Sequence record: PQ900156.1
Length of the DNA: 64,000 nucleotides
DNA from: Escherichia phage vB_EcoP_ShWW44
Reading direction: 5' to 3' (one strand)
This document shows positions 25,908-55,146 of the stretch, piece by piece. Positions within the stretch are counted from its first letter, which is position 1. The number at the start of each line of letters is the position of its first letter. The position numbers were made by a program, and so were the translations under genes. Below the pieces are notes generated by a model that was not told where the DNA came from, did no database searches, and was given only the letters and a program-made list of their open reading frames with translations.

Positions 25908-25977
25908 GGTCGGGGTAGCACGTAGGCATGTGCAGAAGGTCGCTACTTCTCTCGCTGGTTCGAATCCAGCCCCTGAC
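25908..25977 (+). tRNA. probable tRNA (isotype unresolved; anticodon loop read as GTCGCTA)
   Basis: 7-bp acceptor stem GTCGGGG/CCCTGAC, D-stem GCAC/GTGC with GG in loop, perfect stem AGAAG/CTTCT, T-arm GCTGG-TTCGAAT-CCAGC; TATAAT element just upstream; variable loop only 3 nt. Confidence 0.45.
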
Positions 25978-26433
25978 CTACTGACATCCTATCAATGAGT
26001 ACATTAGGCTAACGTGCGGAGGTTTACACTGTAGCCGGTGTAGGTGGAGAAGACGGCAGGGTAGCTACCTGTGCTTAGTGTACTCTTTGATAGTTTTCGT
26101 AAGCGATTATGCGGTTTTTTAGAAATGAACCAATAACATAAATGCAAACGATGATGTTGTTCTGATGGCGGCGTAATAGCCTGTAAGTCAGCAAGGTCTT
26201 CCTATTCCTTGTAAATAAATTCGGCGCAGTGGCCCGCTGTAATTAATAATGGGCACACAACAGGTAAGAGCATTGGGTAATGTCAGCCTTGGTTCGAAGT
26301 CGAAAGACATGCGGTAATACCCAGCCAAAGTTCCAGTGCTCTTTCCGTTGTGGAAATGCAAGCACAACAAGTCCAGACGATATCTGAGTGACTTTAAAAA
26401 CAGATGGAGCCAGGTGGAATCCCTGGCAATCTA

Positions 26434-26822: not shown

Positions 26823-27351
26823 AATTTGAGGTGTAACAGTTAAATCCAGTTGCCGGAAGTGCTATTCTAGATACGCTGCCAATGTGTGAACGGTAAGGCT
26901 GTACAGGACTCGGACTCCCACCTCAAACCAAAGTCGCCAGGTACTTATGGCAAACGGGTAGTAACGAACTAGTCATTCGTCAAACGCCCAACCTATTACG
27001 AGTCAGCAAGAACGCCTTCACTTAAACTTAAACAATATGAAAGCTTAACGCAGATAATATGTAGGGGTATGTAAGGATTGCGAAGAAGGAGCCAGTTAAA
27101 GCCTGGCATGACTCACCTATTAATAGAGAACATAGTCCTGATTGCATTGCACTCTAAAGACAATGCCGGTGAGACAGTCCGGCACTCTAATTATTGTAAA
27201 CATACCCACTGACGAGTGGGTATGAGTATGAGCAGACTATAATGCTCAAGTACAGTTATCTATTATCGGACTATCAATCCTGTTTGCTGGTACAAGCACC
27301 GGTGGTAATAGTTAACTGGCCTAGTCTCGTTAGCTGCGTTAAAGCTACTGA

Positions 27352-27376
27352 GTCCCTCTTCGGAGGAACTTTTTTA
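27352..27376 (+). terminator. intrinsic terminator with UUCG tetraloop closing the non-coding locus
   Basis: CCTC-ttcg-GAGG core with flanking pairs, followed by TTTTTTATTT. Confidence 0.5.
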
Positions 27377-27398
27377 TTTGAAAGTAGGAGAAATACTA

Positions 27399-27673
27399 TG
27401 GCTAAATATCGTAAAAAACCTGTTGAGATTGAAGCTTTTCAATGGGACGGTAGTCTTAATCTGAACAAAGAACCAACTTGGATAGTAGATGCTCTTCATA
27501 ATGGGGTAGTCTGGTTCTCTGGGAAGGATAATAAATTATGTATCAGAACTCTGGAGGGTATCTTAACTGCTTCCCCCAATGACTATATTATCCAAGGTAT
27601 ACATGGGGAGCTATATCCGTGTAAACCAGATATATTCCTGGAAACCTATATCAAATCAACAACCGTAAGCTGA
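27399..27673 (+). CDS. hypothetical protein (91 aa)
   Basis: Start set to ATG with strong RBS AGTAGGAGAAA (track ORF starts 27242). Confidence 0.6.
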
Positions 27674-28660: not shown

Positions 28661-31600
28661 TTAGTTAGTAAGATTGAGCCAAGGGTTCAGGTTATGGGCA
28701 CGCAAGCCTTGACCAAAACCGAAGGAGTAACCGAGGTTGCCCTGTGCAGCAATACTAAAGATGTTGTCCTGAATAGGCAAACCAACATTACCAAACATGG
28801 TAGGGGTTGGTGCTAACATAGCCATAGCAGCATGTACTGGGTTATTACGAATCATGGACACTGCAACTTTTGCAGAACGAATCTTAAAGTTGTAGAACCA
28901 CATCAGACCAACACTTTCCATATATCCACGGAAGCGACCAGGTAAACGGTCATAGTTAATGAACTCTTCTGTTACACGTCCCAGTGCCTCTTCACGAGTC
29001 TTACCTTTACGCTGAGTCAGTTCATCATAGATGATTGCTTTAGCAATAAAGTCAGAGTACTCAACTGTCTTCTGGATACCCTGGAAGAGAGCAGTATCCT
29101 TAGGGATAAGTGCATAACGACCTGCGTTACGTACAGACTTAGGCAGCTTATCAGCCAGCTTATCCATGTACTCGTGAAGTTTACCTTCAGTAATCAGGAT
29201 GTCATCACGTCCAATACCTGCGTCTGCAATTGAGGAGAACTCGCCAGCTTCCAGCAGAGGCCAGATACTTAAACGCTTATGGCTATCCGTGATGGACTGA
29301 ATCTCGGCCTTCAGCTTACGAATCTGGTTCGGGTTAGTAGCTGCACGTAATTCTGCTTCTGCATCTACCTGACGCAGACGAGATTTCAGGTACTGGTTAA
29401 TCTCAGCAGTCTTCTGTGGAATGCTCTTAGCAATGTTCTTAACAGGCACACCACGAGCAACCATCTGGTAAAGGTTAGCCAGGAAGTTAACAGCAGGTAC
29501 AACTACTGACTTAACCACAATCAGAGTCTTAGCTTCTTTAACTAAGTTCTGAACCAGGTTCTCACCACCCATTACATACTTATAGGCACGGTTACCAAAT
29601 ACACCCATCATAGCTTTCTTGAAGGTATCCAGTGTTTCTGGGGACCAGCGAGAATTACCAGACCAGGCATCACCAACAGAAGCTGCACGATAACCCAGAG
29701 CATCATTGAGCATGTCACGACGTACCCACAACTCACCTGGGCCAAACAGACTTTCTGCTTTCTGACGAGTTTCACTGTTCATCAGTTTAAGAGCATCAGC
29801 AGTCACTGGGTCCAGTTTAGAACCAAGAAGGTTAACGTACTGGGACTTATTAGATGCAGACATCTTAATGTCGTTCTCATACATGCTATGCAGGTTCTCA
29901 ATCAGCATATCGTTGAAACGCTGAGCCTTAGCTTCTTCCACCTGGCGACCACGCCATACACCGATTGCACGAGCAAGATGGTTCTCACCCTCAATATGCT
30001 TCAGCATGTTAGGGTCAATAGATTGCTCATAAGCAACTACATTACCATTGGCATCATATACAGGCAGCAGTGGTTCATTGCCACGTTCACCACGAGCCTG
30101 TGCTTTAGTGATACGGTCTACGGAAGGCTTGTCAGTAATACGACCAGCTACCATGGTTCCCATCGTAAAGCCTGTACCAAGGTCTACACCACCAGCAGTA
30201 TTTCGAACGTTCTGCAGGATACCTTGTGAGAACGGAGCCTGTGCCTGTACTGGTGCAAAGTAGTAGCTACGTGCTGGTCCACGGTTAGCAGAGCTACCTT
30301 GATATGTACCCAGACGTACATAGGATTTCTCAATCAAATCAGCAAACTGACTATCTTCAGCAACAATCAGGTTAACACCTTGCTTGCTATCACTAGGTAT
30401 ATATCCTTTGTACTGGTTCAAGGTTGCACGACTATCAGACTTAGCTTTAGCCATTTCATCTTTACGCTGACCAACCAGGTAAGAAGTAGCAAAGTCCATG
30501 CCTTCAATTTCTGTCTGAGCCAGTGAAGATAACACCTCACGGTCAGTCTTATTCATTGCTTCCAGTGCATACAGCGTAATGAGTTTATCCAGTTGAGCTA
30601 CATCTACAACGGAACGTGTAGTCTTACGTTCACCCAGTAAACGAGAAATTGCAGTAGCATTACGCAGCAGGTTATTACCAACCGTACCATTAATCATGTA
30701 CTGAGCCAGTTGCTTAGATTTACGATTAATCAGAGGCCAGTTACGTCCAGCTTGTTTCTGCAAATCTGCTTCCAGTTTATTAACCTCACGGTCAACAATC
30801 TTTTGGTCAGTCAGCAGGTCACGGATTTCATCCAGAGACATAGTATCTCGCAGAACAGCTAAGTCAGTTTTACCCATACCAGTATGCATTGCTTTCCACT
30901 CATCATTGGTCAGCTTACGGCTGAACTTAGATGCGATAGTGGTAGGCAAATGTTCACGGAACTGTTGACGGTCAGCCTGTACCTGTGCACGTACTGCTTT
31001 AATCAAATCATATACAGAAGCATTGCTCTTAGTACGTCCGATTATGTCATTAACCAGGTCATGGAAAGGCTGCCATACTTTACCCTGGTTCATTGCAGCC
31101 ATAACACCTTCAGCTACGATTGAACCATTCTTCTCTGTAGCAATAGCAGCTACCAATTGTGCAGCATGAGCAGCACCTTTAACCAATGGGTTCTTGGTAT
31201 TAGCTGCAACTTCACGAGCACCTTCCAAAGCACGGGTAGACAGTACATCAATAGAGTCCACCAGATACTGGTTAGCACGGTCGATAGCATTACCAGTAGG
31301 TGTAGCAACGGAATCATAGAAGGACTCTGCATTAAGACTGGTCTGCATGATTGTCTGAGCCAGTGCATCCATACCTTCCTGTACGTTAGTAGCTTTAGTA
31401 TCACCTGCTACACGAGCATTCAGACTAGCCATTGCAGCAGTACCGATGTTAGTCAGCATTGCGTCAACAGTATTGCCAGATTTCTTATCTGCTTTCATAA
31501 CAGGAATGTCAGCCAGTACCTTACGTACTTCTTCACTTACCATTGCCAGACCAACAAAGGTAGGCAATAAAGAAGAGCGACCCTGTGCATCAAACTCAAT

Positions 31601-34600
31601 GTTGTTAGCACCCATGATGGTATCGAACTTCTGCTGTGCATAGTAACGGTCAGCAGGGTTAGTACTATCTGGGTCAGCCATGAACGATTCAACAGTTAGG
31701 TTCTTAGTAACATGTGTGTAGTATTCCTGTGCACGAGCCATAGCAGCAGGGTTAATAGCAGCCTCAGTAGCCAGTGCAGCAACGATGTTAGTGAAGAGAC
31801 GCTGTTCCTGCATATTCATGGTGAAGCCATGGGCCTGAACATCACGGGTTACTTTGGTTGCATTTACTACTGCATCAGAGAACTTACCTTTACGAATTAC
31901 TTGCTGTACTGGTTCTGAACCAATGTAGTCAGTAATCAGCTTATCAAAGGTCTTACCTAACTCTTCCAGACGAGTATTGTCACCATATGCTTTGTTATGG
32001 AACAGGGTAGTGTCTTTGGCTACAGCAGCAGTAGGAGCTTGTCCACGCATTACTACAGCAGAGTTAAACAGTAGGCCAGAGAACATATCATCTGCATTAG
32101 CCGGAGCTTTCTTACGTCCAAATACCAGACGCTTGATTGCTTCATATACAGCCTGAACCATAGCTTTAAGTGCAGTGGTTTTCTTCTGCTTACCAATCAG
32201 TTCACGGTTGGTTAAACCCCAGGCCATGTACTCATTTAGTGCAGCAGCTTTAGCCATTGCTGGTTCAATAAAGCCATTGGACAGGTGACCGTTAATGGTA
32301 TTGAGTGCATCAGCATATGCTTCACGTACTGCCGGAGATTCATCCTTAACATCCAGAGCACGAAACTGGTTCATCAGGTCTTCAATATTCTGAACTGCTT
32401 CATTAGGAGTACCTTCATAATGAGCCAGTACAGATTCAAAAGTAGAGGCATGTACCAACTCATGAACCAGAGTCTCTAAGGAAGGGGTAACTAAATAGAT
32501 GGTCTTATCTTCAAAGTTAGTCCAGCCGTATGCATTACCAGCTTCAGCAGCTTCAATATCTTCCGGTGCTGGGCGAGTAATATTCTTCTCAATAGCATAG
32601 GCATCCAATTGAGCAGGTGTACCATAAACAACCTTATAGTCTTTAGCAGCGAGAGATTTCTGTATTTCTTTCAGTACTGCTTGCTGTTCAGGAGACATCT
32701 CTTTAGCCAGCTTAGAGATAGCAGTATTAGACAGCAGACGTACACCAGACTTCAGTACACGACCAACCTGTTCCATTGCTGGTACTTCTTTCACTGGTTC
32801 TGCTTTAGTAGCACGTACTGCATCACGACGCTTGTTTAATTCAGCATCAAACAGTTCGTTTAGCTTAGCTACTTGCTGGTCTACAGTAAGACCTTCCAGA
32901 GAGATTTTACCGTTGTTCACATAAGGAGCACCAACAGCAGCCATCTGGTCAACGGTGACTTGTACCTGGTCCATTACCTTGTGACGAATATCTACACCCA
33001 AAGCAATGTTACGCAGATTGCGTTCAATTAATGCAATACCAGAATCTTTAATCATAGAAATTTTATAATCTCTATCACCATCTACTCTGGTAATCTGAGC
33101 ACGCTGGTCATACTCCAGAGCAGATTTAGCGATAGCCTGTTTGGTTTCATCAGACAGTTTGCTGAAATCTACGTTCTTATGAAACTTAGCAAAGGAGTCA
33201 TAAACATTCTTGATAGGATTACCCTGCCAGGAAGTATATACAGCCTCATTAGCTTTACGACTTGCGTCAGTGATGTCATTGATACCAATGTTCATACCAT
33301 CAAAGATTTTCAGGGTATTCTTCGGAGCACCTTTCATAGTAGAAAGGGTCTGCATCATCATGCCATCACCAGTACCGATGGTCATAAACGGAATACCTGC
33401 AACACCTGCCTGTGAAGGAGCATAGATGCTCATTGGCACACGCATACGGTCATCTAAGTTGGTAGCCAATACTTGGTTAGCAACATCAGTATTCTCGCTA
33501 CCAGCAATGTAGAAAGTCTGGGAACCAGTCTCAATCATTGGAGCCAGTGGAGATAAGTGATTCTGAATTTCATTCAGTTCTTTCTGAGTTAAGAAATCAC
33601 CTTTCTTCCATGTTGGGTCTTTTTCTTTTTCTGCCAGTTTAGCCTGTACTGCCTGTTGGAACATATCCTGCAATACCAGTGATTGAATCTGAGTAGCCTT
33701 CTGCAAATTTTCAGTAGAGTACATCAGACCTTCACCAACAGTATTTCGGATACCATGTCGCATTGGCTCAACGAACAAGTGAAGCATGTTCTCTTGTAAG
33801 TTCTTCAGAGCATTACCGGATACAGTAAACTTCTGAGGGTCTAATTTACCGGTCAGAGCACCTTCTACCTGCTGAATAGACAACTCACCTTTACGCATAA
33901 CTGGAACATTGCCAGTTAGTGCTTCCATAGAAGTAAGGAAAGTATCCAGCATAGCCTGAGCATCGGCCTCAGACGCAGCCTCCTTACCAAACATAGCCAT
34001 AGCCGGGGAAATGCTAGGGTCAGCAGCACGGGCTTGCAGAACGTCACTGAAGCGTTCATAGATGGTATCAGTAATTGCACTAACCATTTTGCCAGCAATA
34101 CCACGAGCACCTGAACCATAAATGGTAATGGTCAGTGGGTTTTTAGCGATACCGCGTTTCAGGTCCAGAGTACCATCTTCCTTAAGATTGAAGTCTTTAA
34201 TGAATAGGTCCATTAACTTCTGGAGATGCTTCATCTGGTTCGTAACAGGAACGTTGTTACGATAAGTATTACGCAATTCATTCAGATGCCTTTGTAGACT
34301 ATTAGTGGATGCTTCATACAGGTCAACGCTGTCCTCATGCGAATGATGCTCGTTCATAGTCTTGCCAGCTTTACCGAAGAACAAGCCACCTTTAGCAGTA
34401 TTCTTAATCCAGTCTGGAGTGAACTTACCACCCGTCATTAATACCATTGCGTTGATTGGTCCGTTGGTTACACCATCAGCTTCAACGTACAGTGGGGTAT
34501 TAAAGTTGGCACGGTCATCACTGTTAAGATAACAGGCATACTCCATCAGAGCCATGAGAGCTACAAATGATTTATCATTACCCAAAGGGGTCTTCAGAAT

Positions 34601-37600
34601 ATCCACAGCATCAGTAGGTAAGTGCCCAGACTTATCAAACTCAACCATCATATCAACGGCAGGTTTCAATTTACCTTCCAGAGCTTTAGTCAGCTCATCC
34701 GACATAACTTCACGGGACATTTTATGAACTTTGATACCCAATGCCTGAGCCAGTCCAAGCTGGAAGTCAGAGAAGTCTTGACTGTTTTCATTACTTAAGT
34801 CGATGGTAGAGAAAGTTGGTAGGATTGCTTCACGTACCAGCTTAGCTGATTGTGGGTTGTTCTTACCAAGCATCTGCATACGACCTACACGGGTCATGTT
34901 GTAGCCGTAGTGAATAGGTGTAGTGCCAATGTCTTCTCTCTGTTCCTTAATCTGATTGATAACACCAAACAATGGAATCTTTGCATGGACTACGGACAGG
35001 TTCTTACCTTCCAGAGATTTAGCAGTATTCACATTCAGCAATTCTGGGGTAAGAGCACCAGCACCCATCAGTTCCAGAATGTTGTCACGACCCATTGCTT
35101 CATAGAAGTTAACCATAGGCATATGTACACGGAACTCTGTAGCCTGTTCTGCCTTAAGGGCAGCTTTCTGTTCCGGGGTATTCTTAACAGCCGGGTTACG
35201 TAACTGAGTTTGAGCCACAGAAGGGATATCATCACCCAGGTACAGTTTCTCTTCTGGTTCTAAAAGGACAGCTTCCTCAATAGCAGTAGGGAATTTGTTA
35301 ATGGCATCGTTATCATCTAACTTCTCAATGGTATACAGACCAACAGTCTTATTAGATTCTGGGTCAATCTCAGACACATCCAGCATAGACTCTTTAACTT
35401 CACCCATCTCAATGAGAGAAGACAGAATCTCTGTAGCCATTGCCATTGGGATACCCTTGGTATAACCCAGAGGTGCATTAGGATTACGATTAAGTCCCCA
35501 GTAAGATTCAATCTTTTGAGCCAATGAGTTAGTAGCTTCAACCAGAGTCTGAGCATTCTCGAAGTCAGCCAGAATACCTTCAGGTAACAGGGATGCTTCT
35601 ACACCAGTAATAGCAGCTACGTCTTTCATGTCTTTAATGGCAGCATTCTGTGTAGCAGTTAATCGCCATTGCAGACCAGCAAGTACAGCAGTCTCTAACA
35701 ACTGGTCATTGAACTTAAAGGTGTCACCATCTTTCTCTACGATGTTAAGTAACTTACCACCTACCCAACGGTTGGCCTCAGTACCTTCTGCAAAACGTTT
35801 ACCAACGTTCTTGTTAGAAAGGAACTTAGCAAGACGGTCAGACAGAGTAGTCTTCAGAGTTTCACCAAAATCAAACAAGTCCTGATAACGCTTAATCACA
35901 TCACTTGTGAGAGCGTTATTTTCTTTTTGAGTAAATGCTTCAAAGCGAGCAGCAGAAGACAGTGCTTTCTTAACATCAGTCAAAGGAGACACAGAACCAA
36001 TGGTACGAGACTTAGGTTCTTCTGGCAGAGAAAATGCTTTAAGGAACTGGTTCGGTGTCTTGTCATTGTTATAGACAGGGAACACTGTTTCCATTTCCGA
36101 TAGAGGTTTACCACCAACAGTATAGTCTGCTTTCAGTTGAGCCAGTGATACTTCTTCTTTCTCAACGTTATTGGTATTAAGCCCAGATGTATCTACACCA
36201 ATCTGAATCAGTGCATTGTTTGCTTCTACGAATGATTGAACAGTATTGAATTGTTCAGCAGTTAGCTTCTGATTATCAAACAATTGCAGAGATACGAACG
36301 GTTGCTCACTACCTTTATAGAAAGTAGAACGTACAGCACCAGTATCCAGAGACATGTCACGATAACCATCATGACCAAATACGTCAGACAGACTGATATG
36401 GTCGCCATTGGAACCAACAACAGTACCATCAGCGAATAGCCATGGACTATCTCTACGGTCACCATACTTATTAAGAGTATCTTGTGAAATAGTATTCTCT
36501 TTCACATAAGAATCTCTTTCAGATTCAGTAGGCTGTTCAACGATATCCTGTTTTTCAGACTGGTTCTCAGGTTCTTTTACAGTCTGTGGTTTAGACTCTT
36601 TAATAGTAGGTTCTGTTTTAACAGCTTCACTAACAGAGGGTTTAGTCTGTACAGTAGGGGTAACTGGTTCCTGTTTCGTAACAGGAGTTTCATCAACCTG
36701 ATTCACTGGTTCATTAGTCTGTTGGGATTGAGCAGCATCAAGATTGCCCTGACGGAACTCTTTAACTACCTGGGCAGCAGGTTTGTCCAGACGTGAATCC
36801 AATGGGGTAACTTTCACATGAGAAACATTAAGCTCCGGGTAAGCCGTAGCAAGTGCGTTAGCAATATCAGCTACGGTTTTGGCCTCCAGTCCTACTTGCT
36901 GGGCAAACTTAACAGACTTGGTATCATACGGATTGACACCGAGGCCAGTACGACTACGTACCCATTCACGCGAGGGAGTAAGAGCCTGATAATGGACAGA
37001 CTTATTCTTATCCGCATTCCCAGAAATCAGATGCTCATTCAACGCTCCGACCTTATTCTGCATGTGCTGGGCGAACTTCATAAAGTCGTCGAGATAAGCG
37101 GAGGCCAAATCGAAGTTACCAGAGTTGTACGCAGAACGAATGCGTTTAGCATGTTGCAACGCAGAGTACTGGCCTTCATTAGAACGAGATTCGTCGGTTT
37201 TAATCTGTTTACTAACAATGTCTTGAGGACGTAAGCCTAGTTCTTCTGCTTTAGCGTCAAATTCTCGTGCTCCTTGCAATAGAGCAGCAGCAGATTGCAG
37301 GGCAGCACGCTGACGATTCCCCAGTGTAATCTTACCTTCACTTGCATGTTTCAGAACCATGTTCACTGAATCTGCATCCAGTACTTCTGGAGACATATCA
37401 GCAGCCATAGCAATGTTGTTTGCCTGGGCTTGGTTAGCTTCTTCGGTAGCTTTCAGTTTACCTGCTTCAGCCTGTTCCTGAATCATGGAATGGATGGCAC
37501 GGAATGCACGGAGTACCTTCGGTGTATTCTGTACATTAGCCATCAGACCAGAGAACTGGTCAACGATATTAGCAGCAGGAGAACCCTGTTCCAGATTAGC

Positions 37601-39448
37601 CAGAGCACCCGGGTCACGGTTAATGAAGCTATCCATAGACATAATGTTGTCATACATCTGGATTGCAGCTTCCATTTGAACGTTAGGGTCTTCGGCAGTA
37701 TTAACCAGGTCAGCCATCTTCTGAATAGCTTCAACACGGTTAGTGGAACCAGAAACAGCTTCACGGATTGCTGGACTAGCTTGCTCCAGTTCTACTGGGT
37801 CAAACTTCATTACCTGAGTTAAGTCAGCAGCATACTGTGTAGCAGCAGCTTTCTCTTCAGGAGAAATATCCATTGCATCCACTGCTTCCTGAACAGTTGC
37901 TTGTGCTTGTTCTGCCTGAGCAGTAGCTTCTTGTGCAGCAGCGTTAACCGTAGCGTCTGATACAGGGGATGCTTGTTCGTTACGCTTAGCAACTTCTTCA
38001 CCACGCTGAACCAGGATGTTAGTAATAGGAGAAGCTACTTTTGCTAGTGCCTTACCAGCCAAAGAAGCACCAGCCAGGGTAGTACGTACAGCAGGACCAA
38101 CGGCAGCACCAGCAGCCTTAACAGTTGCACCAGGAGCTTGAGCAACTCCAGCAGAACCAAAGCCATACAATGCACCAAGACCAGTTTGTTCACCCACACC
38201 TTTAAGCAAATCACGCTTAGCATCTACATTACCCTGAATTGCCTTGTTCTGTGCGAACTGACTTGTACCAGACTGGATACCTTCTTCTACAGTCTCACGC
38301 AACATGTTAGAACCAGCACCAACCAGTGAACCTACCTTAAGTGGGTTAAGTTCAAACTTGGATACCAGTGGACCAGTAAGAGCAGCAACCGGAGCAGTTA
38401 AGCCAGCAGCAGTGATACCTGTTTCAGACGCAGTTTGACGACGTGCTTCTTCAGGAGATAAACCATCTTTAATATGCTGTTGGTATACAGGGGATTTAGC
38501 AGCCAGTTCACTGAACGGCATTTCCATAATTTCATTAGCAGTCTGTTGGTATGCTCCACCAGCTTCCATTCCACCAATTGCTATAGCAGGCGCAGCAACA
38601 CGACCAGTAGCCATTGCAACCTGTGCAGGACGTGAACCTAACTCAGCAGCTAGGGTAATACCCTTAACAGCTTTATCACCACCTACCATTACTTTACCGA
38701 GAGCAGATACACCACGGATAAGTGGACCACCGGTAAACAGAGAACCAACACCCTCAGCCAGACCATCTGTAGCAGCCATGCCATTGGACAAAGTGTTAGC
38801 AACTGAATCGTAAGCATCACGACCAATGCGAGACAGAGAAGCAACGAGTTCACTTTCTCCTTTATCAATATCCTGCTTATAGAGTTTCTCGTTTTCCTGA
38901 GCAGATATTACGTTCTGGTTCTGTACTACATTACGACGAGCATTCAGTGCATCAGACTGTAGGTTGTGTACACCTTTATTCAACCAGTCAAGACCGGAAG
39001 CAATGGATGCCCCGGCATTATCATTGACCAAACCTGTACCAAGAGCAGCAATGCCCCCAAGGGTATTAGCAACACCAAGACCAACACCAGAAAGGGTATC
39101 ACCAAGTGCTTCACCATATGTACGACTCTTAGTTAAATCACGACGAACAGCATTAGCTGCATTGACACGAGCATTGAGAATATCCATTCCTTGCTCATTG
39201 CCATACTTGTTTATGATTTCAAGAGGGGAGGCATTAGTAAAATCTGCCTGAATAGAACCTGGTTCAAATGCACCAGCACCTAAATCACCGGCACGGCCTG
39301 CCTGTAACTGGTAGGCGTTCTGTGGGGTTAATTGGAAAGGGCTTTGCCCTTGTTCAGCTTGTTTCCGAGAGGTTGCAGTAGAGACATCGACTTGCTTAGC
39401 AGTAGTGATGCTGTCTGCGAAACCTGCCAGACGGTCAAATGTTGACAT
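28661..39448 (-). CDS. giant virion-encapsidated RNA polymerase (N4 vRNAP-like)
   Basis: About 3600 aa; T7-like motif A YVEADGVTNGP, motif B RGIAKNPLTITIYGSG, motif C LKIFDGMNIG with the A and C aspartates about 392 residues apart; track start 39466 is TTG, ATG with AGGAA RBS is at 39448. Confidence 0.85.
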   Translation of the reverse strand: MSTFDRLAGFADSITTAKQVDVSTATSRKQAEQGQSPFQLTPQNAYQLQAGRAGDLGAGAFEPGSIQADFTNASPLEIINKYGNEQGMDILNARVNAANAVRRDLTKSRTYGEALGDTLSGVGLGVANTLGGIAALGTGLVNDNAGASIASGLDWLNKGVHNLQSDALNARRNVVQNQNVISAQENEKLYKQDIDKGESELVASLSRIGRDAYDSVANTLSNGMAATDGLAEGVGSLFTGGPLIRGVSALGKVMVGGDKAVKGITLAAELGSRPAQVAMATGRVAAPAIAIGGMEAGGAYQQTANEIMEMPFSELAAKSPVYQQHIKDGLSPEEARRQTASETGITAAGLTAPVAALTGPLVSKFELNPLKVGSLVGAGSNMLRETVEEGIQSGTSQFAQNKAIQGNVDAKRDLLKGVGEQTGLGALYGFGSAGVAQAPGATVKAAGAAVGPAVRTTLAGASLAGKALAKVASPITNILVQRGEEVAKRNEQASPVSDATVNAAAQEATAQAEQAQATVQEAVDAMDISPEEKAAATQYAADLTQVMKFDPVELEQASPAIREAVSGSTNRVEAIQKMADLVNTAEDPNVQMEAAIQMYDNIMSMDSFINRDPGALANLEQGSPAANIVDQFSGLMANVQNTPKVLRAFRAIHSMIQEQAEAGKLKATEEANQAQANNIAMAADMSPEVLDADSVNMVLKHASEGKITLGNRQRAALQSAAALLQGAREFDAKAEELGLRPQDIVSKQIKTDESRSNEGQYSALQHAKRIRSAYNSGNFDLASAYLDDFMKFAQHMQNKVGALNEHLISGNADKNKSVHYQALTPSREWVRSRTGLGVNPYDTKSVKFAQQVGLEAKTVADIANALATAYPELNVSHVKVTPLDSRLDKPAAQVVKEFRQGNLDAAQSQQTNEPVNQVDETPVTKQEPVTPTVQTKPSVSEAVKTEPTIKESKPQTVKEPENQSEKQDIVEQPTESERDSYVKENTISQDTLNKYGDRRDSPWLFADGTVVGSNGDHISLSDVFGHDGYRDMSLDTGAVRSTFYKGSEQPFVSLQLFDNQKLTAEQFNTVQSFVEANNALIQIGVDTSGLNTNNVEKEEVSLAQLKADYTVGGKPLSEMETVFPVYNNDKTPNQFLKAFSLPEEPKSRTIGSVSPLTDVKKALSSAARFEAFTQKENNALTSDVIKRYQDLFDFGETLKTTLSDRLAKFLSNKNVGKRFAEGTEANRWVGGKLLNIVEKDGDTFKFNDQLLETAVLAGLQWRLTATQNAAIKDMKDVAAITGVEASLLPEGILADFENAQTLVEATNSLAQKIESYWGLNRNPNAPLGYTKGIPMAMATEILSSLIEMGEVKESMLDVSEIDPESNKTVGLYTIEKLDDNDAINKFPTAIEEAVLLEPEEKLYLGDDIPSVAQTQLRNPAVKNTPEQKAALKAEQATEFRVHMPMVNFYEAMGRDNILELMGAGALTPELLNVNTAKSLEGKNLSVVHAKIPLFGVINQIKEQREDIGTTPIHYGYNMTRVGRMQMLGKNNPQSAKLVREAILPTFSTIDLSNENSQDFSDFQLGLAQALGIKVHKMSREVMSDELTKALEGKLKPAVDMMVEFDKSGHLPTDAVDILKTPLGNDKSFVALMALMEYACYLNSDDRANFNTPLYVEADGVTNGPINAMVLMTGGKFTPDWIKNTAKGGLFFGKAGKTMNEHHSHEDSVDLYEASTNSLQRHLNELRNTYRNNVPVTNQMKHLQKLMDLFIKDFNLKEDGTLDLKRGIAKNPLTITIYGSGARGIAGKMVSAITDTIYERFSDVLQARAADPSISPAMAMFGKEAASEADAQAMLDTFLTSMEALTGNVPVMRKGELSIQQVEGALTGKLDPQKFTVSGNALKNLQENMLHLFVEPMRHGIRNTVGEGLMYSTENLQKATQIQSLVLQDMFQQAVQAKLAEKEKDPTWKKGDFLTQKELNEIQNHLSPLAPMIETGSQTFYIAGSENTDVANQVLATNLDDRMRVPMSIYAPSQAGVAGIPFMTIGTGDGMMMQTLSTMKGAPKNTLKIFDGMNIGINDITDASRKANEAVYTSWQGNPIKNVYDSFAKFHKNVDFSKLSDETKQAIAKSALEYDQRAQITRVDGDRDYKISMIKDSGIALIERNLRNIALGVDIRHKVMDQVQVTVDQMAAVGAPYVNNGKISLEGLTVDQQVAKLNELFDAELNKRRDAVRATKAEPVKEVPAMEQVGRVLKSGVRLLSNTAISKLAKEMSPEQQAVLKEIQKSLAAKDYKVVYGTPAQLDAYAIEKNITRPAPEDIEAAEAGNAYGWTNFEDKTIYLVTPSLETLVHELVHASTFESVLAHYEGTPNEAVQNIEDLMNQFRALDVKDESPAVREAYADALNTINGHLSNGFIEPAMAKAAALNEYMAWGLTNRELIGKQKKTTALKAMVQAVYEAIKRLVFGRKKAPANADDMFSGLLFNSAVVMRGQAPTAAVAKDTTLFHNKAYGDNTRLEELGKTFDKLITDYIGSEPVQQVIRKGKFSDAVVNATKVTRDVQAHGFTMNMQEQRLFTNIVAALATEAAINPAAMARAQEYYTHVTKNLTVESFMADPDSTNPADRYYAQQKFDTIMGANNIEFDAQGRSSLLPTFVGLAMVSEEVRKVLADIPVMKADKKSGNTVDAMLTNIGTAAMASLNARVAGDTKATNVQEGMDALAQTIMQTSLNAESFYDSVATPTGNAIDRANQYLVDSIDVLSTRALEGAREVAANTKNPLVKGAAHAAQLVAAIATEKNGSIVAEGVMAAMNQGKVWQPFHDLVNDIIGRTKSNASVYDLIKAVRAQVQADRQQFREHLPTTIASKFSRKLTNDEWKAMHTGMGKTDLAVLRDTMSLDEIRDLLTDQKIVDREVNKLEADLQKQAGRNWPLINRKSKQLAQYMINGTVGNNLLRNATAISRLLGERKTTRSVVDVAQLDKLITLYALEAMNKTDREVLSSLAQTEIEGMDFATSYLVGQRKDEMAKAKSDSRATLNQYKGYIPSDSKQGVNLIVAEDSQFADLIEKSYVRLGTYQGSSANRGPARSYYFAPVQAQAPFSQGILQNVRNTAGGVDLGTGFTMGTMVAGRITDKPSVDRITKAQARGERGNEPLLPVYDANGNVVAYEQSIDPNMLKHIEGENHLARAIGVWRGRQVEEAKAQRFNDMLIENLHSMYENDIKMSASNKSQYVNLLGSKLDPVTADALKLMNSETRQKAESLFGPGELWVRRDMLNDALGYRAASVGDAWSGNSRWSPETLDTFKKAMMGVFGNRAYKYVMGGENLVQNLVKEAKTLIVVKSVVVPAVNFLANLYQMVARGVPVKNIAKSIPQKTAEINQYLKSRLRQVDAEAELRAATNPNQIRKLKAEIQSITDSHKRLSIWPLLEAGEFSSIADAGIGRDDILITEGKLHEYMDKLADKLPKSVRNAGRYALIPKDTALFQGIQKTVEYSDFIAKAIIYDELTQRKGKTREEALGRVTEEFINYDRLPGRFRGYMESVGLMWFYNFKIRSAKVAVSMIRNNPVHAAMAMLAPTPTMFGNVGLPIQDNIFSIAAQGNLGYSFGFGQGLRAHNLNPWLNLTN

Positions 39449-39517
39449 AGCAAGATTCCTGTTCAAACTTATATCGTATAAGAAGATTCACTGTACAGTA
39501 AGTGAATGTAAGAGAAA

Positions 39518-49062: not shown

Positions 49063-51333
49063 TTATAAGTTCATACCAAGAGCCGATGCTGGGTCTTGGC
49101 TAGGGTCATAAAACTGGGAACTAAGTGAATAAGTCGGGTCTTGCTGTGCAGCTAAGTCACGTTCCTGTAAAGAGTTCCCGTTAGTCAAAGCATTATATCC
49201 GACAGCAGCAGATATGTTGGGGGTAGTTTCACCTTCTTTAGTAGGTGTTGTCAACGCCTTAGTTATTTGAAGGTTCTGGTTTCCTTGAGATTGTGCTTTT
49301 TGTTTCTCCATATCACGAGCATGTTTAGTACCAGATTCCTGTTCCAGATAATCCAGGTCTTTGAGGTCACCGCTAGAAATAGCTTCTTTAGCCTTAGCAT
49401 TATTGAGTGCAATCTTACTTTTCAACTCTTCATTCTCAAGCTGTGCTTTCTGAATTGCTAATTGCTTAAGCTGTTCTTCCATAGGGTCTGGTTGTGGTTT
49501 CCAGGTACGTAATTCATGAGCAAGGTCTGGCATACGTTTAAGTTCTGCAATCTTAGCTACAAGAGATAACGTAATAGTCTGGTCAACTGTATTACCTAAC
49601 GTTTGAACCATGAAGCTCAAATCCTGAGATTTCTGGTTATCAATTTCAGCAGTATTAATATCAACCTCAATATCGAAGTTACCTTTAAGGTCTTCACGGT
49701 TAATTTCTACATACTGCTCATTAGTAATACGTACTACTTCCTTCTCAGATAAGAACACAGCATTCATTGCACAAATCTTAGTACCAATGTCTGCCATACC
49801 CTTAGCTAATCGGCGAAGGATTGCCATCTCACGTTTGGATGCTGCATCAAGTGCACCGCGGATACCAGCAGCTACATCTCCATAAGCTGCACCAGTTACA
49901 CCACCAGAAAATGCTTTAACACCAGTTAGTGCCTCTGCTTCCTGGTTCTGCATCTGAGTCATTACTATTGCCGACTGAGGTAACTCAGGGAACTTGTGTT
50001 CCATAATGGCCTGACTAGGATTCCCCTGCATTGGGTTGTATTCATAGTCTTGCCCATCATCATATCGACGACGGTTTAGAGTATCTAACATCCCTTTAGG
50101 ATAACCACGTTGCCCGTTTGCACTTCGACCCAACAGGTCAATCATCCCACGCATTGTTGCACCAAGAATTGCTTGGTTATCCCCTAGTAGTTCAGCGTCA
50201 GCTTCACCAAAGAGTTCACGTTTACGTGGCATGTAAGGGACAACTACCAGAGGTAACTTACCATCTGGGAATGGGTTCTTCTCCATACGAATAAGAGTAG
50301 AACCAATCCAGGTAGCAACAATTGGTTCCAGTGAACCGTCATCATTAATGTCGTAAAATCCCCAGTACTCATAAGCAACTACTTTCTTACGTAATGCATC
50401 TTTAAACTGGAAATCACCAGGAGTTTTACTTTCATGGTCTGGGTCAGTCATAGGGCTAGAACTTTCCCAGTCAATTTTATCCAGATTGTGATAGCGGTCT
50501 TTGTTCTTCATGAGGTCTGCTTTGCAAGTCTCAAATGAGATAACTGCATAAAGAGCCTTATCCAAATCACCATTACAGCTTGGGTCAATAACTACGTTGT
50601 TGGGGTTAAGCATTTCAACAGTAGGTCTGTTAACCAGTGCTTTTTCTACTTCTACTTCAGTAACACCCGTCTGGATTGCATAGGTAGCTTCCCCAGTTTC
50701 ATTGAAGTAGTTAACAGCTTCCTTAATATCTTCTGGCATCGTTTCGTCATATTCACGAGGATTCTCTGCCTGAAGCTGTAAAGCCTGCTGAAGAATATCT
50801 GCTTGTTCCTGGTTCTCAATTGGATACAACTGGAAGACTGGGGTTTCTGTTTTAATCTTAACAGTCTTACGTTCCCAACCAATACGAGCAATGCCAGTAC
50901 CATCGTCTACGACACTGTGTACGTAATCATCCACCAGTTTTACTTTATTAAGCTGGGTACGGAATTGGTAGTTAAGCACTAGTTCATTCTGACGTGCAGC
51001 TAACTCATCCTCAAAAGTAACAGGGGTTACTTTAAAAAGTTTGTTAGACGAGAGGAATGGTTCTGACAATGGTGCATAACGCCATTCTGCCTGACGGCGA
51101 ACCAGTCTAGGCTGGACTTGGGAACGGCCCTTAACCTTTGGGGGTTTAGCCTTACCCTTAACTTCCATCAAGTCATTCCACTCACGAATCTGAGCCATGA
51201 TTGCATCGTGAGCAGGTTTAGCTGATTCCAAATCACCTTTCAGTAATTGGATACTTGGTTCCTTCTTCCAGTCCGTTAACTTCTCTGATTGAGCCGGGTC
51301 TGGTAAAGGCTTAAAAGTGTCTTGGTGTTCCAT
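49063..51333 (-). CDS. portal protein (N4 gp59-like by size and position)
   Basis: 756 aa; position between lysis cassette and capsid module. Confidence 0.55.
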
Positions 51334-51335
51334 AG

Positions 51336-51863
51336 TTATTCCTGTTCAAAAAGTTTACGGTCAGCCTGAATCTGTTTACCCAACTCAATTAGTTGGCTGT
51401 CACGGAGTCTAACAGTTGCCCGGAGTTCTTCAACCAAACGTCTGCCTTCTTCAAGACTGTTGTCGAGTCTGGCTGCATGGCTTGCAAGACTTCTGCACTC
51501 AAGGGTTCCGGCTTCGGCTTGACGTTTATATACCGATGCTCGCCTTTCAGACTGTTGCATCCGGCTGTCGTAATCACTGCTAACGCGAGCAAGCTCGCTT
51601 GCGTAATTACTCTCAGCCGTCTGCAACCGGGAAGTGAGTAACCCGACTTCATAACTATGGTTTCTTTGGAGAGCATTGTATTTGTCCTGTAATTTTTGTA
51701 TTGCCTTTTGGTCTTCAACCTTTTGGTCATCCCATTTCTTTTGAACAGTAGACTGTCCATTGGAATTACCCCAAAAGTAAATGGTGGCCCCTAGGACCAC
51801 CACCAGAAGATAAGGCCAACCTTTAGAGATTAGCATCTTCATTACATGCCTCCAGTGGCACAT
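51336..51863 (-). CDS. i-spanin (Rz-like): N-terminal TM plus periplasmic coiled-coil
   Basis: [18 protein letters not shown] then charged helical region; start may be an internal ATG (about 51842 or 51836). Confidence 0.55.
51389..51652 (-). CDS. o-spanin (Rz1-like) lipoprotein embedded in the i-spanin gene in another frame
   Basis: Signal with RRLR n-region, [12 protein letters not shown] lipobox-like, Pro-rich mature part KPKPEP; start set to internal Met of track ORF 51389..51760. Confidence 0.5.
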   Translation of the reverse strand: MKSGYSLPGCRRLRVITQASLLALAVITTAGCNSLKGEHRYINVKPKPEPLSAEVLQAMQPDSTTVLKKADVWLKNSGQLLDSVTAN

Positions 51864-52458
51864 TGCCTATTCGGTTAGCTACCCAACCATATGTAAAGTC
51901 TGGCATGTTTAATGAGGTGTAGTGGTTCAGTTGTTTGGCATCAAGTAACTTAATCATTACCTTACATGCTGCAACTTTGCCTCGTTTTTTCTGTAATGCT
52001 TTATATGCATTAACAGTACTTGCACCGACTTTACCATCAACCTGTATTTTAGGGTAGTCTTTGCCATCACGGGACATTTCATTAAGAGATTGCTGTAACC
52101 ACTTAGCCGGACGAGTTACACCAGTGTTAACACCAGCATCTACCAGCTTGTGTGTTACAGCAGGAGATATATCAGCGAAGGCTACGAAGTTAGGCTTAAG
52201 TACATAGTCATCAATGTATATCTCAGCAGCCATCTCTTTAGATAAACCTTTCATAGAACCATCCCAACCATACTCAGTAGCCAGAACTTCTTTGTGAGAT
52301 TTAGCTACAGATTGAGTAATGCCATGATTAGTTTCCCCACCTGGGTCACGAGGATTGTTTACATATCCCCCTTCCATATAGAACACTGCCCCCAGGATAG
52401 CAGCGACAACTCCTCCCACTGTACCACCTTTCGCAGCAAGTTTCTGTTTAGCTTTCAT
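51823..52458 (-). CDS. endolysin, GH108-type muramidase with possible SAR signal-anchor
   Basis: EGGYVNNPRDPGGETNHGIT motif; N-terminal Gly/Ala-rich weak TM GGTVGGVVAAILGAVFY. Confidence 0.65.
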   Translation of the reverse strand: MKAKQKLAAKGGTVGGVVAAILGAVFYMEGGYVNNPRDPGGETNHGITQSVAKSHKEVLATEYGWDGSMKGLSKEMAAEIYIDDYVLKPNFVAFADISPAVTHKLVDAGVNTGVTRPAKWLQQSLNEMSRDGKDYPKIQVDGKVGASTVNAYKALQKKRGKVAACKVMIKLLDAKQLNHYTSLNMPDFTYGWVANRIGNVPLEACNEDANL

Positions 52459-52708
52459 GTGAATCTTCCTTTGGTCGGAATCGTATCAATCTGCCTATGA
52501 TGTTTAAGGCAAACAGTGCGATTGCAATATTGGAACCATGGGGAATATCTTCCAGGATGTGACGAGGTAGTCCTGTCAGCATTGGTTGAATAATATCTAT
52601 GGCAGAAAACATAATTAACCCAAATGTACTAATCTGAATGGATGCCCACTTCCAGCATCTTTTCCAGTTAGGTACTAACTCAATCTTTCTTTTTAACCTG
52701 CGAACCAT
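52448..52708 (-). CDS. holin/pinholin candidate (two TM helices)
   Basis: TM segments ASIQISTFGLIMFSAI and NIAIALFALNIIG; immediately upstream of endolysin; start trimmed to internal Met. Confidence 0.45.
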   Translation of the reverse strand: MVRRLKRKIELVPNWKRCWKWASIQISTFGLIMFSAIDIIQPMLTGLPRHILEDIPHGSNIAIALFALNIIGRLIRFRPKEDSHES

Positions 52709-53022
52709 GCGAATATCTCCCGTCTTGCAGCAGCCAATACACCAATAATTGCACCTGCTCCAGCCCACACCCACTTACCAAAAATTCCAGCACCAACAAC
52801 TTTATGCTTAATGGTGATGAACTCTTCAATAGTAGGTTCATTTTTAGCTAAGCTATCCTCCACATTTTTCAGCCTATTGCCTATGTCATTGATTGAATCC
52901 CGTAGTTCCACCAGAGTTTCCTCCAGTTTCTCACGGTCCTGCCTGTCCCTTGTCTGGTTCTCAAACAGAGTCTTCAATCGTTCCTCCAGTCTGACTAGAA
53001 GCAGTTCACCCGATTCATTCAT
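52693..53022 (-). CDS. lysis-associated membrane protein (N-terminal coiled-coil, C-terminal Gly-zipper TM)
   Basis: C-terminal VVGAGIFGKWVWAGAGAIIGVLAAA; first gene of the lysis cassette. Confidence 0.4.
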   Translation of the reverse strand: MNESGELLLVRLEERLKTLFENQTRDRQDREKLEETLVELRDSINDIGNRLKNVEDSLAKNEPTIEEFITIKHKVVGAGIFGKWVWAGAGAIIGVLAAARREIFAWFAG

Positions 53023-53201
53023 AATATTACCGTAGTTGTGTAGTTAGATTCCCCAATAGGGCCATATCATAAGATGACTCTTAGATAATACTTAGTATGA
53101 TGGGGTACATCCAGACATAGTGTCTGCCTTAGACATTATTGTAAGAAGTGCAGGTACAGTGAGAGAATGGGGAATGCAAACAGTAAACTCTATATAGGAA
53201 A

Positions 53202-53226
53202 AGCCCCCTTAATTGGGGGCTTTTAG
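53202..53226 (-). terminator. bidirectional intrinsic terminator after tailspike gene
   Basis: AGCCCCC-ttaatt-GGGGGCT with U-tracts on both strands. Confidence 0.6.
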
Positions 53227-53238
53227 TAATGTCACATG

Positions 53239-55146
53239 TTATACAAAGTAAACCAATGTACCTATGATACGTGAATTATTCCCCAGTGCTGCAACAGAAC
53301 CAGAAATACCCACTGCTGAGGCTGTAGATGCAGAGATCATGATATTGGAGTTCAGTGCTTCTGCTCGGATATACAAGCCATAAACAGGTAAGGCAAGTTC
53401 AGCATAGTAGCCTACACTACCTGTACCTGTGGTATCACCACACGCAAAAGGCAGACCTAAAATTGCTGACTGATTCCCTGTACCAATAGTATTGATATGA
53501 ATATCAAACTCTACTGTTACCTTACGACCTTCTTTACGGTACTTACCCTTCTGAATGTTATAAGTAGCATTACCACCTACAGAAGGGGTCCATGTACCTT
53601 CTATAACATCAGAGGATGTCCATGCATTTGGTGATAATGGTGGGTTATTGACAACAGTGAATTTAGCACCAGCACCTGAGTTGTAGGGGATGAATACAGG
53701 ATTAATACGAGCAAAGGTGTTATTAACCTGTTCATCAAGGTTGTTCATATCAATCAGAACCTGTCCATTAGCAAATGTACTAACAGCAATATCCTCTACT
53801 ACCCAATCACGTAGCTTAACGTTACCATCCATCATTCCGATGATGCGACCATTATTCCCTATCTTCTCACTATGCATGTTGATGTAACAGTTACGGATTC
53901 GTACACTCTGTGGGAAAAGGTAGTTTGCAGGATTAGTCTTGTCACTAAGTACTGAAACCATCCAAGGTCGTACAGCTGTACTCACCTCTGTGTAGTATCC
54001 ATCAATAATAGCACCGTGAGCATTTGGCCCAAGAAGAATACCTCCAGTACAGTGGTGTGCGTTACCTCCAATTACACGGCACATTGTAGAGTTGATATAT
54101 GCAAAGTAACCTAAGTCTTGGTTATCGTATGCACCCATTGAGCAATCACGTATGGTAAATCGTGAGTTACCGCCATCATAGGCACTACCATCAGTCTTCT
54201 TGCCAAGGAGAGCTATGAAACTACCAGTTGCTACTGTACTGAAGTAGGTATGTTTCTCACAACACTCAATGATCCCATCCCAGTTCTCATACTGAGAATA
54301 GATGTCATAGGTTGCAGAGTTACCATAGTCCATAAAGATGCAGTATCTGATTCTAGGTGTGAATACGAAGGACTTAATGAAAATACCGAAACCTGCTTGC
54401 ACACCACCAGTGAATCGCAGACCCTCTATAGTGTATTCAGACTGATAGAAGTTATCAGCAGTAGGTGCATCTTCTGGAGTTGGGTCACCTAAGTACATTG
54501 CTGCACCAGTACCTGAGTAGTCCAGAGTAGCTGACTGAAAACCATATACTGCTACAGGGCGTGTAAAGTTTATACCAGTAGTATACTTATAATGACCAGC
54601 AGGAAAGATAACAGAAATGGGTGCAGAGTATTTGGCTCGGGAGTTTACCCAAGCAACCATAGCCTGAATAGCAGCAGTGTCATCGGTAATCCCATCACCT
54701 ACTGCACCAAAGTCCTTCAGACTTACCCAATCACCTAATGCAGCCTGTACAGTGCGAGCAACTTCACCAACACGTCCGGTAATGTGACCAACCTTACTAG
54801 AGCCAGTGTTAGAAGCCAGTTCGTCATATACTGCTGTAATGGCTTCATTGACTCGTACAGCAATGTCATTTGGTGCAGGAAGTAGACTAACGGTAATACC
54901 CCCTGGGTTATAGGTTAATTGGTCACCATTTACATTAGCAATGGTTGCCCCGGAGGGGAGAGTAGGTAAAGTCCATATCTTCTTAGCATTACGATCGAAG
55001 AGTATAGTCTTATCATCTAGCAATGTATTAGTATTCGTACTGAGAATAACTTTACCTTCTGCTACGTTACATGCACGAGCAATGGCTTGTATATTGGTAA
55101 GAATACCCGTAGAGCCTTTACCACCTTGAGAGAACATCTCGTTCAT
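53239..55146 (-). CDS. tailspike/tail fibre with pectate-lyase-like beta-helix domain (depolymerase candidate)
   Basis: DFGAVGDGITDDTAAIQAMVAW motif typical of Pectate_lyase_3 domains; 635 aa. Confidence 0.65.
   Translation of the reverse strand: MNEMFSQGGKGSTGILTNIQAIARACNVAEGKVILSTNTNTLLDDKTILFDRNAKKIWTLPTLPSGATIANVNGDQLTYNPGGITVSLLPAPNDIAVRVNEAITAVYDELASNTGSSKVGHITGRVGEVARTVQAALGDWVSLKDFGAVGDGITDDTAAIQAMVAWVNSRAKYSAPISVIFPAGHYKYTTGINFTRPVAVYGFQSATLDYSGTGAAMYLGDPTPEDAPTADNFYQSEYTIEGLRFTGGVQAGFGIFIKSFVFTPRIRYCIFMDYGNSATYDIYSQYENWDGIIECCEKHTYFSTVATGSFIALLGKKTDGSAYDGGNSRFTIRDCSMGAYDNQDLGYFAYINSTMCRVIGGNAHHCTGGILLGPNAHGAIIDGYYTEVSTAVRPWMVSVLSDKTNPANYLFPQSVRIRNCYINMHSEKIGNNGRIIGMMDGNVKLRDWVVEDIAVSTFANGQVLIDMNNLDEQVNNTFARINPVFIPYNSGAGAKFTVVNNPPLSPNAWTSSDVIEGTWTPSVGGNATYNIQKGKYRKEGRKVTVEFDIHINTIGTGNQSAILGLPFACGDTTGTGSVGYYAELALPVYGLYIRAEALNSNIMISASTASAVGISGSVAALGNNSRIIGTLVYFV

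Follow-up and report, generated by a model that had tools for sequence, protein, structure and literature searches.

A probable N4-type lysis cassette with an embedded o-spanin gene and a putative signal-anchor-release endolysin in Escherichia phage vB_EcoP_ShWW44

Organisation of the lysis locus

We analysed a window of 64,000 nucleotides (nt) from Escherichia phage vB_EcoP_ShWW44 (sequence record PQ900156.1), concentrating on a region of the minus strand between tail-fibre and portal genes for which an earlier reading of the letters alone (hereafter the original prediction) had proposed a lysis cassette. From 53022 to 51336, this strand carries four successive open reading frames (ORFs) with overlapping ends, with a fifth ORF embedded in the last of them; the ORF coordinates and the gene order of the original prediction proved exact. 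Named after their orthologues in phage N4 (proteins from NC_008720, compared by global alignment), the features are as follows:

52693-53022, minus strand: gp63 orthologue, 109 amino acids (aa), probable pinholin; PHROG 5211 (unknown function), 3e-50
52448-52708, minus strand: gp62 orthologue, holin with two transmembrane domains (TMDs), 86 aa; Pfam DUF7940, 1.2e-13 (above cutoff); PHROG 1356 'holin', 8e-30
51823-52458, minus strand: gp61 orthologue, N-acetylmuramidase (endolysin), 211 aa; Pfam Glyco_hydro_108, 6.1e-20, and PG_binding_3, 4.9e-08
52375-52428, minus strand: putative signal-anchor-release (SAR) domain, endolysin residues 11-28, GGTVGGVVAAILGAVFYM; 18 uncharged residues, 50% Gly/Ala/Ser/Thr, mean Kyte-Doolittle (KD) hydropathy 1.73
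51336-51842, minus strand: gp60 orthologue, i-spanin, 168 aa; PHROG 6197 'Rz-like spanin', 6.5e-78
51389-51652 (or from a start at 51676), minus strand: gp60a orthologue, o-spanin, 87 aa, nested completely within the i-spanin gene in its +1 frame

The genes are tightly packed: consecutive members overlap by 16, 11 and 20 nt (in the order gp63/gp62/gp61/gp60), and the portal ATG follows 2 nt past the i-spanin stop codon. Shine-Dalgarno sequences precede the ATG of gp62 at 52708 (GGGAG, 8 nt 5') and that of the i-spanin at 51842 (GGAGG, 6 nt 5'). Global identities to the N4 proteins amount to 68% for gp63, 61% for gp62, 67% for gp61 (66.8%), 54% for gp60, 61% for gp60a and 71% for the portal protein.

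In a megablast search with positions 51000-53300, which matched 87 phage records, the closest record was Escherichia phage St11Ph5 (96.4% DNA identity, 100% query cover), and the cassettes of the Gamaleyaviruses G7C, St11Ph5, Bp4, pSb-1 and UE-M6 share 95-96% DNA identity with the ShWW44 region. By its sequence, the source phage is thus assigned to Gamaleyavirus (Schitoviridae, Enquatrovirinae), as a G7C/St11Ph5-like and hence N4-like podophage. The annotation of its nearest relatives agrees with a lysis cassette at this position: St11Ph5 (MG208881) lists gp59 as portal, gp60.2 and gp60.1 as 'Rz/Rz1 spanin', gp61 as N-acetylmuramidase, gp62 as putative holin, gp63 as hypothetical and gp63.1 as tail fibre, and in G7C (NC_015933) gp60' is described as 'embedded within ORF60; potential Rz/Rz1-like spanin'. 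The Gamaleyavirus records (G7C, St11Ph5, Bp4, pSb-1, UE-M6) do not call the endolysin SAR and have gp63 as 'hypothetical' or as 'tail length tape-measure protein'. For N4-like phages that are further removed, several records from the Center for Phage Technology do label the homologues as 'SAR endolysin N-acetylmuramidase', 'i-spanin' and 'o-spanin'.

The comparisons drew on a set of 16 N4-like loci from phages of Escherichia, Shigella, Klebsiella, Achromobacter, Burkholderia, Erwinia, Stenotrophomonas and Pseudomonas, which spans several Schitoviridae subfamilies. Relatives of the i-spanin in IMG/VR comprised 12 loci that were mostly near-identical, and diversity was taken from tblastn searches against GenBank phages.

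The N4 lysis system

Lysis by N4 was reportedly addressed in earlier work by Stojkovic & Rothman-Denes in 2007 (J Mol Biol 366:406), which is said to be the basis for a preprint in which the N4 cassette has now been dissected. According to this preprint (Awuah et al., Ramsey laboratory; bioRxiv 10.1101/2025.11.12.688109), the N4 endolysin gp61 is of the SAR type: it associates with the membrane, complements endolysin defects both with the lambda large-hole holin and with the phage 21 pinholin, and when present alone causes slow cell rounding, and mutations that put a charge into the SAR domain, G12E among them, lead to rapid lysis. N4 gp63, described earlier as an 'activator of gp61', is a pinholin that complements S21, not S105, and is conditionally essential; rapid-lysis mutations (S62F, T65I, I70T/N, T71A, I72L) are clustered in its 'LIN domain'. 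N4 gp62 is a large-hole holin that triggers late (~2 h) and is dispensable, and gp60/gp60a are functional spanins, one embedded in the other's gene, that together complement lambda Rz/Rz1. The same source reports that G7C does not share the lysis inhibition of N4 (bioRxiv 10.1101/2025.11.12.688109).

The i-spanin and the embedded o-spanin

The i-spanin combines an N-terminal TMD (hydropathy value 1.87) with a periplasmic helical domain. Relative to its frame, that of the o-spanin is offset by 190 nt, which places the embedded gene in the +1 frame. The lipobox-like signal that had been noted in this ORF could be confirmed: the lipobox TAG/C has its cysteine (51557-51559) at position 32 and a lysine lies within the first seven residues, as in a PROSITE PS51257-type rule, giving a mature lipoprotein of 56 aa. 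The start codon is ambiguous, with ATG 51652 preceded by a weak Shine-Dalgarno sequence and ATG 51676 (24 nt upstream; the start used in St11Ph5) having AGGA 8 nt upstream; either start gives the same mature lipoprotein. The mature part contains four prolines in 56 residues (7%), and its earlier description as Pro-rich was thus overstated; its single cysteine is the lipidated one. In BLASTP, identity to N4 gp60a reached 78% over residues 30-87. The 87-aa product has no match in Pfam, PHROGs or NCBIfam, and hence none to any Rz1 model.

In all 16 N4-like loci the embedded frame is open and the lipobox cysteine aligned, with a mature part of 56-63 residues that holds a near-invariant core (INVKP...LQAMQP.ST..L......W...SG.LLDSV). 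The frame is also present in N4 itself, although gp60a is unannotated in the N4 record. At loci outside Gamaleyavirus, the o-spanin is better conserved than the i-spanin whose gene hosts it (50-78% vs 35-58% identity). The nucleotide sequence of gp60 reveals the same constraint: third-codon-position identity was higher in the overlap than in the non-overlapping part in 12 of 12 pairwise comparisons, and amongst codons keeping the same amino acid the pooled synonymous differences came to 165/602 (27%) inside the overlap and 184/361 (51%) outside. This reduction of synonymous change by about half is a dual-coding signature, with both frames under purifying selection. It is therefore by position and conservation, not by the lipobox pattern alone, that the embedded gene can be accepted as real, in line with the nested i-spanin/o-spanin arrangement of the original prediction.

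Antisense to the overlap lies an 82-aa ORF (51393-51641, plus strand), most likely a frame that is kept open by the double constraint on the opposite strand.

The GH108 endolysin and its N-terminus

The Glyco_hydro_108 match bears out the assignment of the gp61 orthologue as a GH108-type endolysin. The nearest solved structure is 6v3z (Sen1395; 2.2e-27), and the single NCBIfam match, 'holin-associated N-acetylmuramidase', is below cutoff. The protein shares the conserved motif EGGYVN.P.DPGGETNHG with N4 gp61 and is 97% identical to the UE-lysin of phage UE-M6. When cloned and expressed alone, this UE-M6 endolysin slows the growth of E. coli, and the UE-holin of the same phage is likewise mildly inhibitory (PMC12661215).

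The endolysin opens with a basic head (MKAKQKLAAK, four Lys in the first ten residues), which is followed by the 18-residue run listed above. This run ends at M28, directly before the catalytic E29 of the EGGY motif, and there is therefore no room for a signal-peptidase c-region. A SAR-like run abutting the EGG motif was found in 14 of the 16 N4-like GH108 endolysins; in IMGVR7085 a similar run precedes a variant EGGE, leaving Erwinia phage Pastis as the only one without such a run. In addition, G15 of the ShWW44 protein aligns with the N4 gp61 residue, G12, that is altered in the rapid-lysis mutant G12E. From this layout, in which a weakly hydrophobic TMD rich in Gly/Ala/Ser/Thr follows basic residues and leads into a muralytic domain, we infer that the endolysin is probably of the SAR type. 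The Gly/Ala-rich, SAR-like N-terminus of the original prediction thus agrees with the composition of the run and with the homology to N4 gp61, and the pinholin-type lysis control it had taken this to imply is plausible by analogy with N4, where a pinholin triggers the SAR endolysin gp61 (bioRxiv 10.1101/2025.11.12.688109).

An ATG at 52375-52377 (minus strand) forms endolysin codon 28 (FYM-EGGY). It occurs in the Gamaleyaviruses, KP8, Zuri and CRC2, with Val or Leu in N4 and others; an internal start at this codon would yield a soluble enzyme without the SAR domain, and no convincing Shine-Dalgarno sequence was seen for it. The locus of Pastis, with its GH108 endolysin devoid of the run, has no BLAST match to gp62 or gp63. 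Co-variation of the SAR domain with gp62/gp63 was considered and dropped: Philippe and CRC2 keep a SAR-like endolysin and have no BLAST-detectable gp62/gp63, so that the correlation is not clean. Since Pastis, Philippe and CRC2 all lack detectable gp62/gp63, the holin partners have been exchanged more than once within the family.

The two small membrane proteins

The 109-aa gp63 orthologue is helical and charged over its N-terminal two-thirds (coiled coil), after which a single Gly/Ala-rich hydrophobic segment, VVGAGIFGKWVWAGAGAIIGVLAAA, forms the C-terminal part. No family was matched in Pfam or NCBIfam. It carries a 'LIN' segment, PTIEEFITIKHK, that is conserved, and of the 47 residues that start with P63 and run to the C-terminus, 43 are the same as in N4. 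The LIN segment and TMD are nearly invariant. The positions of the N4 rapid-lysis mutations are largely preserved: T65, I70, T71 and I72 are kept in ShWW44, with N4 S62 replaced by Asn at a position that is variable in the family. By its orthology to N4 gp63, the 109-aa membrane protein is thus a probable pinholin. Membership of the S21-type pinholins is a different matter: gp63 has one TMD, and neither membrane protein of the cassette gave an S21 family match in Pfam or NCBIfam, so that gp63, judged by sequence, may work like S21 without being a member of its family.

The cytoplasmic domain of gp63 has diverged from N4 and exists as three alleles within Gamaleyavirus; the ShWW44 N-domain represents the pSb-1/St11Ph5 allele, not that of G7C or IME11. 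DNA identity to G7C drops along the cassette (97% in gp60, 93% in gp61 and 86% in gp62). Beyond gp62 lies a breakpoint in homology at 52843-53260, which takes in the 5' half of gp63, where hardly any alignment can be made, and the intergenic sequence preceding the gene, where none can. IME11 gp63 and its homologue in Klebsiella phage KP8, a member of a different genus, have identical N-domains. In the records of Bp4, KP8, Fifi287, Frozen and UE-M6, the gp63 homologue is annotated as 'tail length tape-measure protein', a label that looks like a propagated misannotation. N4 gp63 Met13 and Met17 are replaced in ShWW44 by CTG and TTG Leu codons. The TTG at 52975-52977 (minus strand; gp63 codon 16), equivalent to the alternative start Met17 of N4, has GAGGAA 4 nt before it, and a second start is conceivable here; in most relatives, Leu is simply encoded at this position.

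The gp62 orthologue exhibits two hydrophobic segments and is 95% identical to the UE-holin of UE-M6, for which DeepTMHMM gave two transmembrane helices (PMC12661215). In naming it as the holin candidate, the original prediction was right as regards the family (DUF7940, PHROG 1356); the likely pinholin, by orthology, is the upstream gene that had been listed as a membrane protein (gp63). By orthology to N4 gp62, the two-TMD protein is best regarded as a putative late, accessory large-hole holin. A longer form of gp62 (108 aa) could be initiated from GTG 52774. We rejected a dual-start (antiholin) arrangement on this basis: the upstream NTG codons found in most relatives are forced by the overlapping conserved gp63 K-W-V-W codons, for which reason their conservation is not independent evidence, and three relatives have an upstream in-frame stop codon.

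Comparison with known lysis systems

The resemblance to N4 comprises the same five genes in the same order and position between tail genes and the portal gene gp59, the SAR run abutting EGGY, a mature o-spanin of 56 residues encoded in an embedded +1 frame, and the nearly identical LIN/TMD part of gp63. ShWW44 differs from N4 in the diverged cytoplasmic domain of gp63, in the less hydrophobic SAR run, in an o-spanin signal peptide without internal Met (giving a signal sequence of 31-39 residues) and in another tail-fibre module upstream.

In the paradigm SAR systems, S21/R21 of phage 21 and P1 Lyz, for which Xu et al. 2004 and Pang et al. 2009 are cited in the literature, the muralytic enzyme is held inactive at the membrane by an N-terminal TMD rich in Gly and Ala, and it is freed and activated upon depolarisation by a small-hole holin. 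The same working principle may apply to ShWW44, although its endolysin is a GH108 muramidase whereas theirs have a T4-lysozyme-like fold. S21 has two TMDs (one of them SAR-like), as opposed to the single C-terminal TMD and long cytoplasmic coiled coil of ShWW44 gp63. The ShWW44 proteins would therefore not be counted as members of the S21 or R21 sequence families. The spanin genes resemble lambda Rz/Rz1 (for which Summer et al. 2007 and Kongari et al. 2018 are cited) in their nested layout: a type II inner-membrane protein gene contains, entirely within its limits and in the +1 frame, that of an outer-membrane lipoprotein. Intermolecular disulfides are known for lambda Rz1; the ShWW44 o-spanin, with the lipidated residue as its only Cys, cannot form such lambda-type disulfides, and it also differs from Rz1 in its mature length (56 aa) and Pro content (7%).

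Proposed lysis mechanism and alternative explanations

Taken together, we consider it likely (with a probability of roughly 0.87) that this region encodes the lysis functions of a Gamaleyavirus, that each of its genes has its orthologue in the N4 cassette gp63-gp62-gp61-gp60/gp60a, and that lysis follows an N4-like mechanism. In such a mechanism, the five genes would be expressed late as a tight block running into the portal gene, with translational coupling probable given the overlaps of stop and start regions. The GH108 muramidase, by its sequence and the example of N4 gp61, would be exported by the Sec system via its SAR domain and would remain tethered to the inner membrane in an inactive state: an N-in/C-out topology is predicted from the positive-inside rule, and inactivity is suggested by the position of the catalytic Glu29 at the membrane boundary. 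The gp63-like tail-anchored protein, by its homology to N4, would accumulate in the inner membrane and fire as a pinholin. With the membrane potential lost, the weakly hydrophobic SAR helix would be able to exit the bilayer, whereupon the enzyme would refold and degrade the peptidoglycan, again as in N4. The gp62-like protein, following its N4 counterpart, may serve as a second, late-triggering large-hole holin in the role of a back-up or modulator. Finally, the inner-membrane i-spanin and the outer-membrane o-spanin would bridge the periplasm and disrupt the outer membrane after loss of the wall, as expected from the N4 pair; sorting of the o-spanin to the outer membrane is predicted from its +2 residue, which is Asn and not Asp.

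Several points weigh against this reading or limit how far it can be taken. In a six-frame search of the 64 kb with the PS51257-type rule, three ORFs with a lipobox signal were observed as compared to 0-3 in 20 triplet shuffles, so that the pattern taken by itself is no commoner than chance would give. The pooled Fisher test for the synonymous contrast in gp60 (P = 2.6e-13) draws upon comparisons that are not phylogenetically independent and is indicative only. The SAR run of ShWW44 is the least hydrophobic in the family (KD 1.73 vs 2.48 in N4), and its membrane retention might hence differ from that in N4; export, non-cleavage and release upon depolarisation of the endolysin are deduced from composition and homology. 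The main experimental source on N4 lysis is a preprint, and since G7C-type phages are reported to be free of lysis inhibition, regulation in these phages need not equal that in N4.

The alternative that deserves the most attention is an exchange of roles between the two membrane proteins, in which the gp62-like protein would be the (pin)holin responsible for triggering the SAR endolysin and the gp63-like protein a regulator or antiholin. The database labels point in this direction, as it is the two-TMD protein that is called holin by PHROG 1356 and in record annotations, and so do the mild toxicity of the 95% identical UE-holin upon expression, the former view of N4 gp63 as an activator of gp61 and the strong difference between the cytoplasmic domains of N4 and ShWW44 gp63. 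We nevertheless hold such an exchange to be unlikely: in N4, gp63 by itself complements the S21 defect and is conditionally essential, whereas gp62 fires only after ~2 h and can be deleted, and it is precisely the LIN segment and TMD of gp63 that ShWW44 shares with N4 at 43 of 47 residues.

Less probable still is that the N-terminus of the endolysin is a cleavable Sec signal peptide or a permanent anchor instead of a releasable SAR domain. A signal peptide would likewise place a basic n-region ahead of a hydrophobic stretch, and small residues (V-A-A, for example) are present inside the run; however, a polar c-region is absent and cleavage would fall inside the h-region, given that E29 comes right after M28, and a run made up to one half of Gly/Ala/Ser/Thr with low hydropathy is what would be expected of a SAR domain. 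Furthermore, N4 gp61 is membrane-associated, pinholin-compatible and a rapid lyser once a charge enters the segment. As for the idea that the embedded frame is open by chance, leaving the i-spanin-like protein alone or some other gene to disrupt the outer membrane, the chance-level frequency of lipobox ORFs and the lack of any database family for the 87-aa product are what could be said in its favour. It is effectively refuted by the openness of the frame with aligned Cys and similar mature length at all 16 divergent loci, by a protein identity exceeding that of the host frame and by the suppressed synonymous change in the latter; moreover, an N4 gp60-gp60a construct complements lambda Rz/Rz1. 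The N4-like cassette with its embedded o-spanin thus remains our preferred reading.

Implications

The cassette is real, complete and correctly read, but it is also ordinary for a phage of this family and already known, being annotated in the nearest relatives and mechanistically characterised in N4, the family's type phage. The gain in annotation lies in labelling the 109-aa gene as a probable pinholin and the endolysin as SAR-type. Where Gamaleyavirus endolysins are cloned as antibacterials, the N-terminal 28 residues should, from the sequence, be regarded as a membrane anchor and not as part of the enzyme. The cassette also offers a natural contrast for studies of lysis inhibition, setting an N4-like lineage reported to be without it against N4. 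One could go further and speculate that the Gamaleyavirus cassette represents a naturally occurring 'rapid-lysis' form of the system found in N4, which could account for the missing lysis inhibition in G7C-like phages. This idea, which we regard as rather doubtful, stems from the low hydropathy of the SAR run, as weaker anchoring abolishes lysis inhibition in N4, and from the cytoplasmic domain of gp63, which is represented by at least three swapped alleles in one genus and lies at the edge of a variable host-recognition module. If true, the gp63 N-domain would be an exchangeable sensor in the regulation of lysis inhibition.

Neighbourhood of the cassette and minor observations

The features flanking the cassette fit its placement between tail-fibre and portal genes:

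downstream neighbour, minus strand: SU10-type portal gene, 1.9e-150
upstream neighbour: pectate-lyase-type tail-fibre gene
53220-53199, minus strand: terminator-like hairpin GCCCCCaattaaGGGGGCtttt (GCCCCC-aattaa-GGGGGC-tttt), read directly from the sequence

The complement of the hairpin was picked up by a terminator scan on the plus strand at 53205-53219. Its location, after the stop codon of the tail-fibre gene and ahead of the cassette, suggests that it marks the upstream limit of the transcription unit. A promoter scan found no sigma-70-like minus-strand promoter in the 216-nt gap 5' of gp63, and an Rfam search of 51000-53400 returned no RNA families. The hairpin is flanked by an A-run and a T-run and could conceivably act as a bidirectional intrinsic terminator; the G7C record has a 'repeat_region' at the equivalent spot.

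Elsewhere in the window, a 143-aa ORF (27242-27673, plus strand) also fits the lipoprotein-signal pattern (…NWPSLVS/C, Cys32) and may be either a chance occurrence or a genuine phage lipoprotein. A single tRNA-Ala gene (anticodon CGC) is located at 25908-25979 on the plus strand. A 3601-aa ORF extends over 28661-39466, a size that we take to be the one expected for an N4-type virion RNA polymerase.

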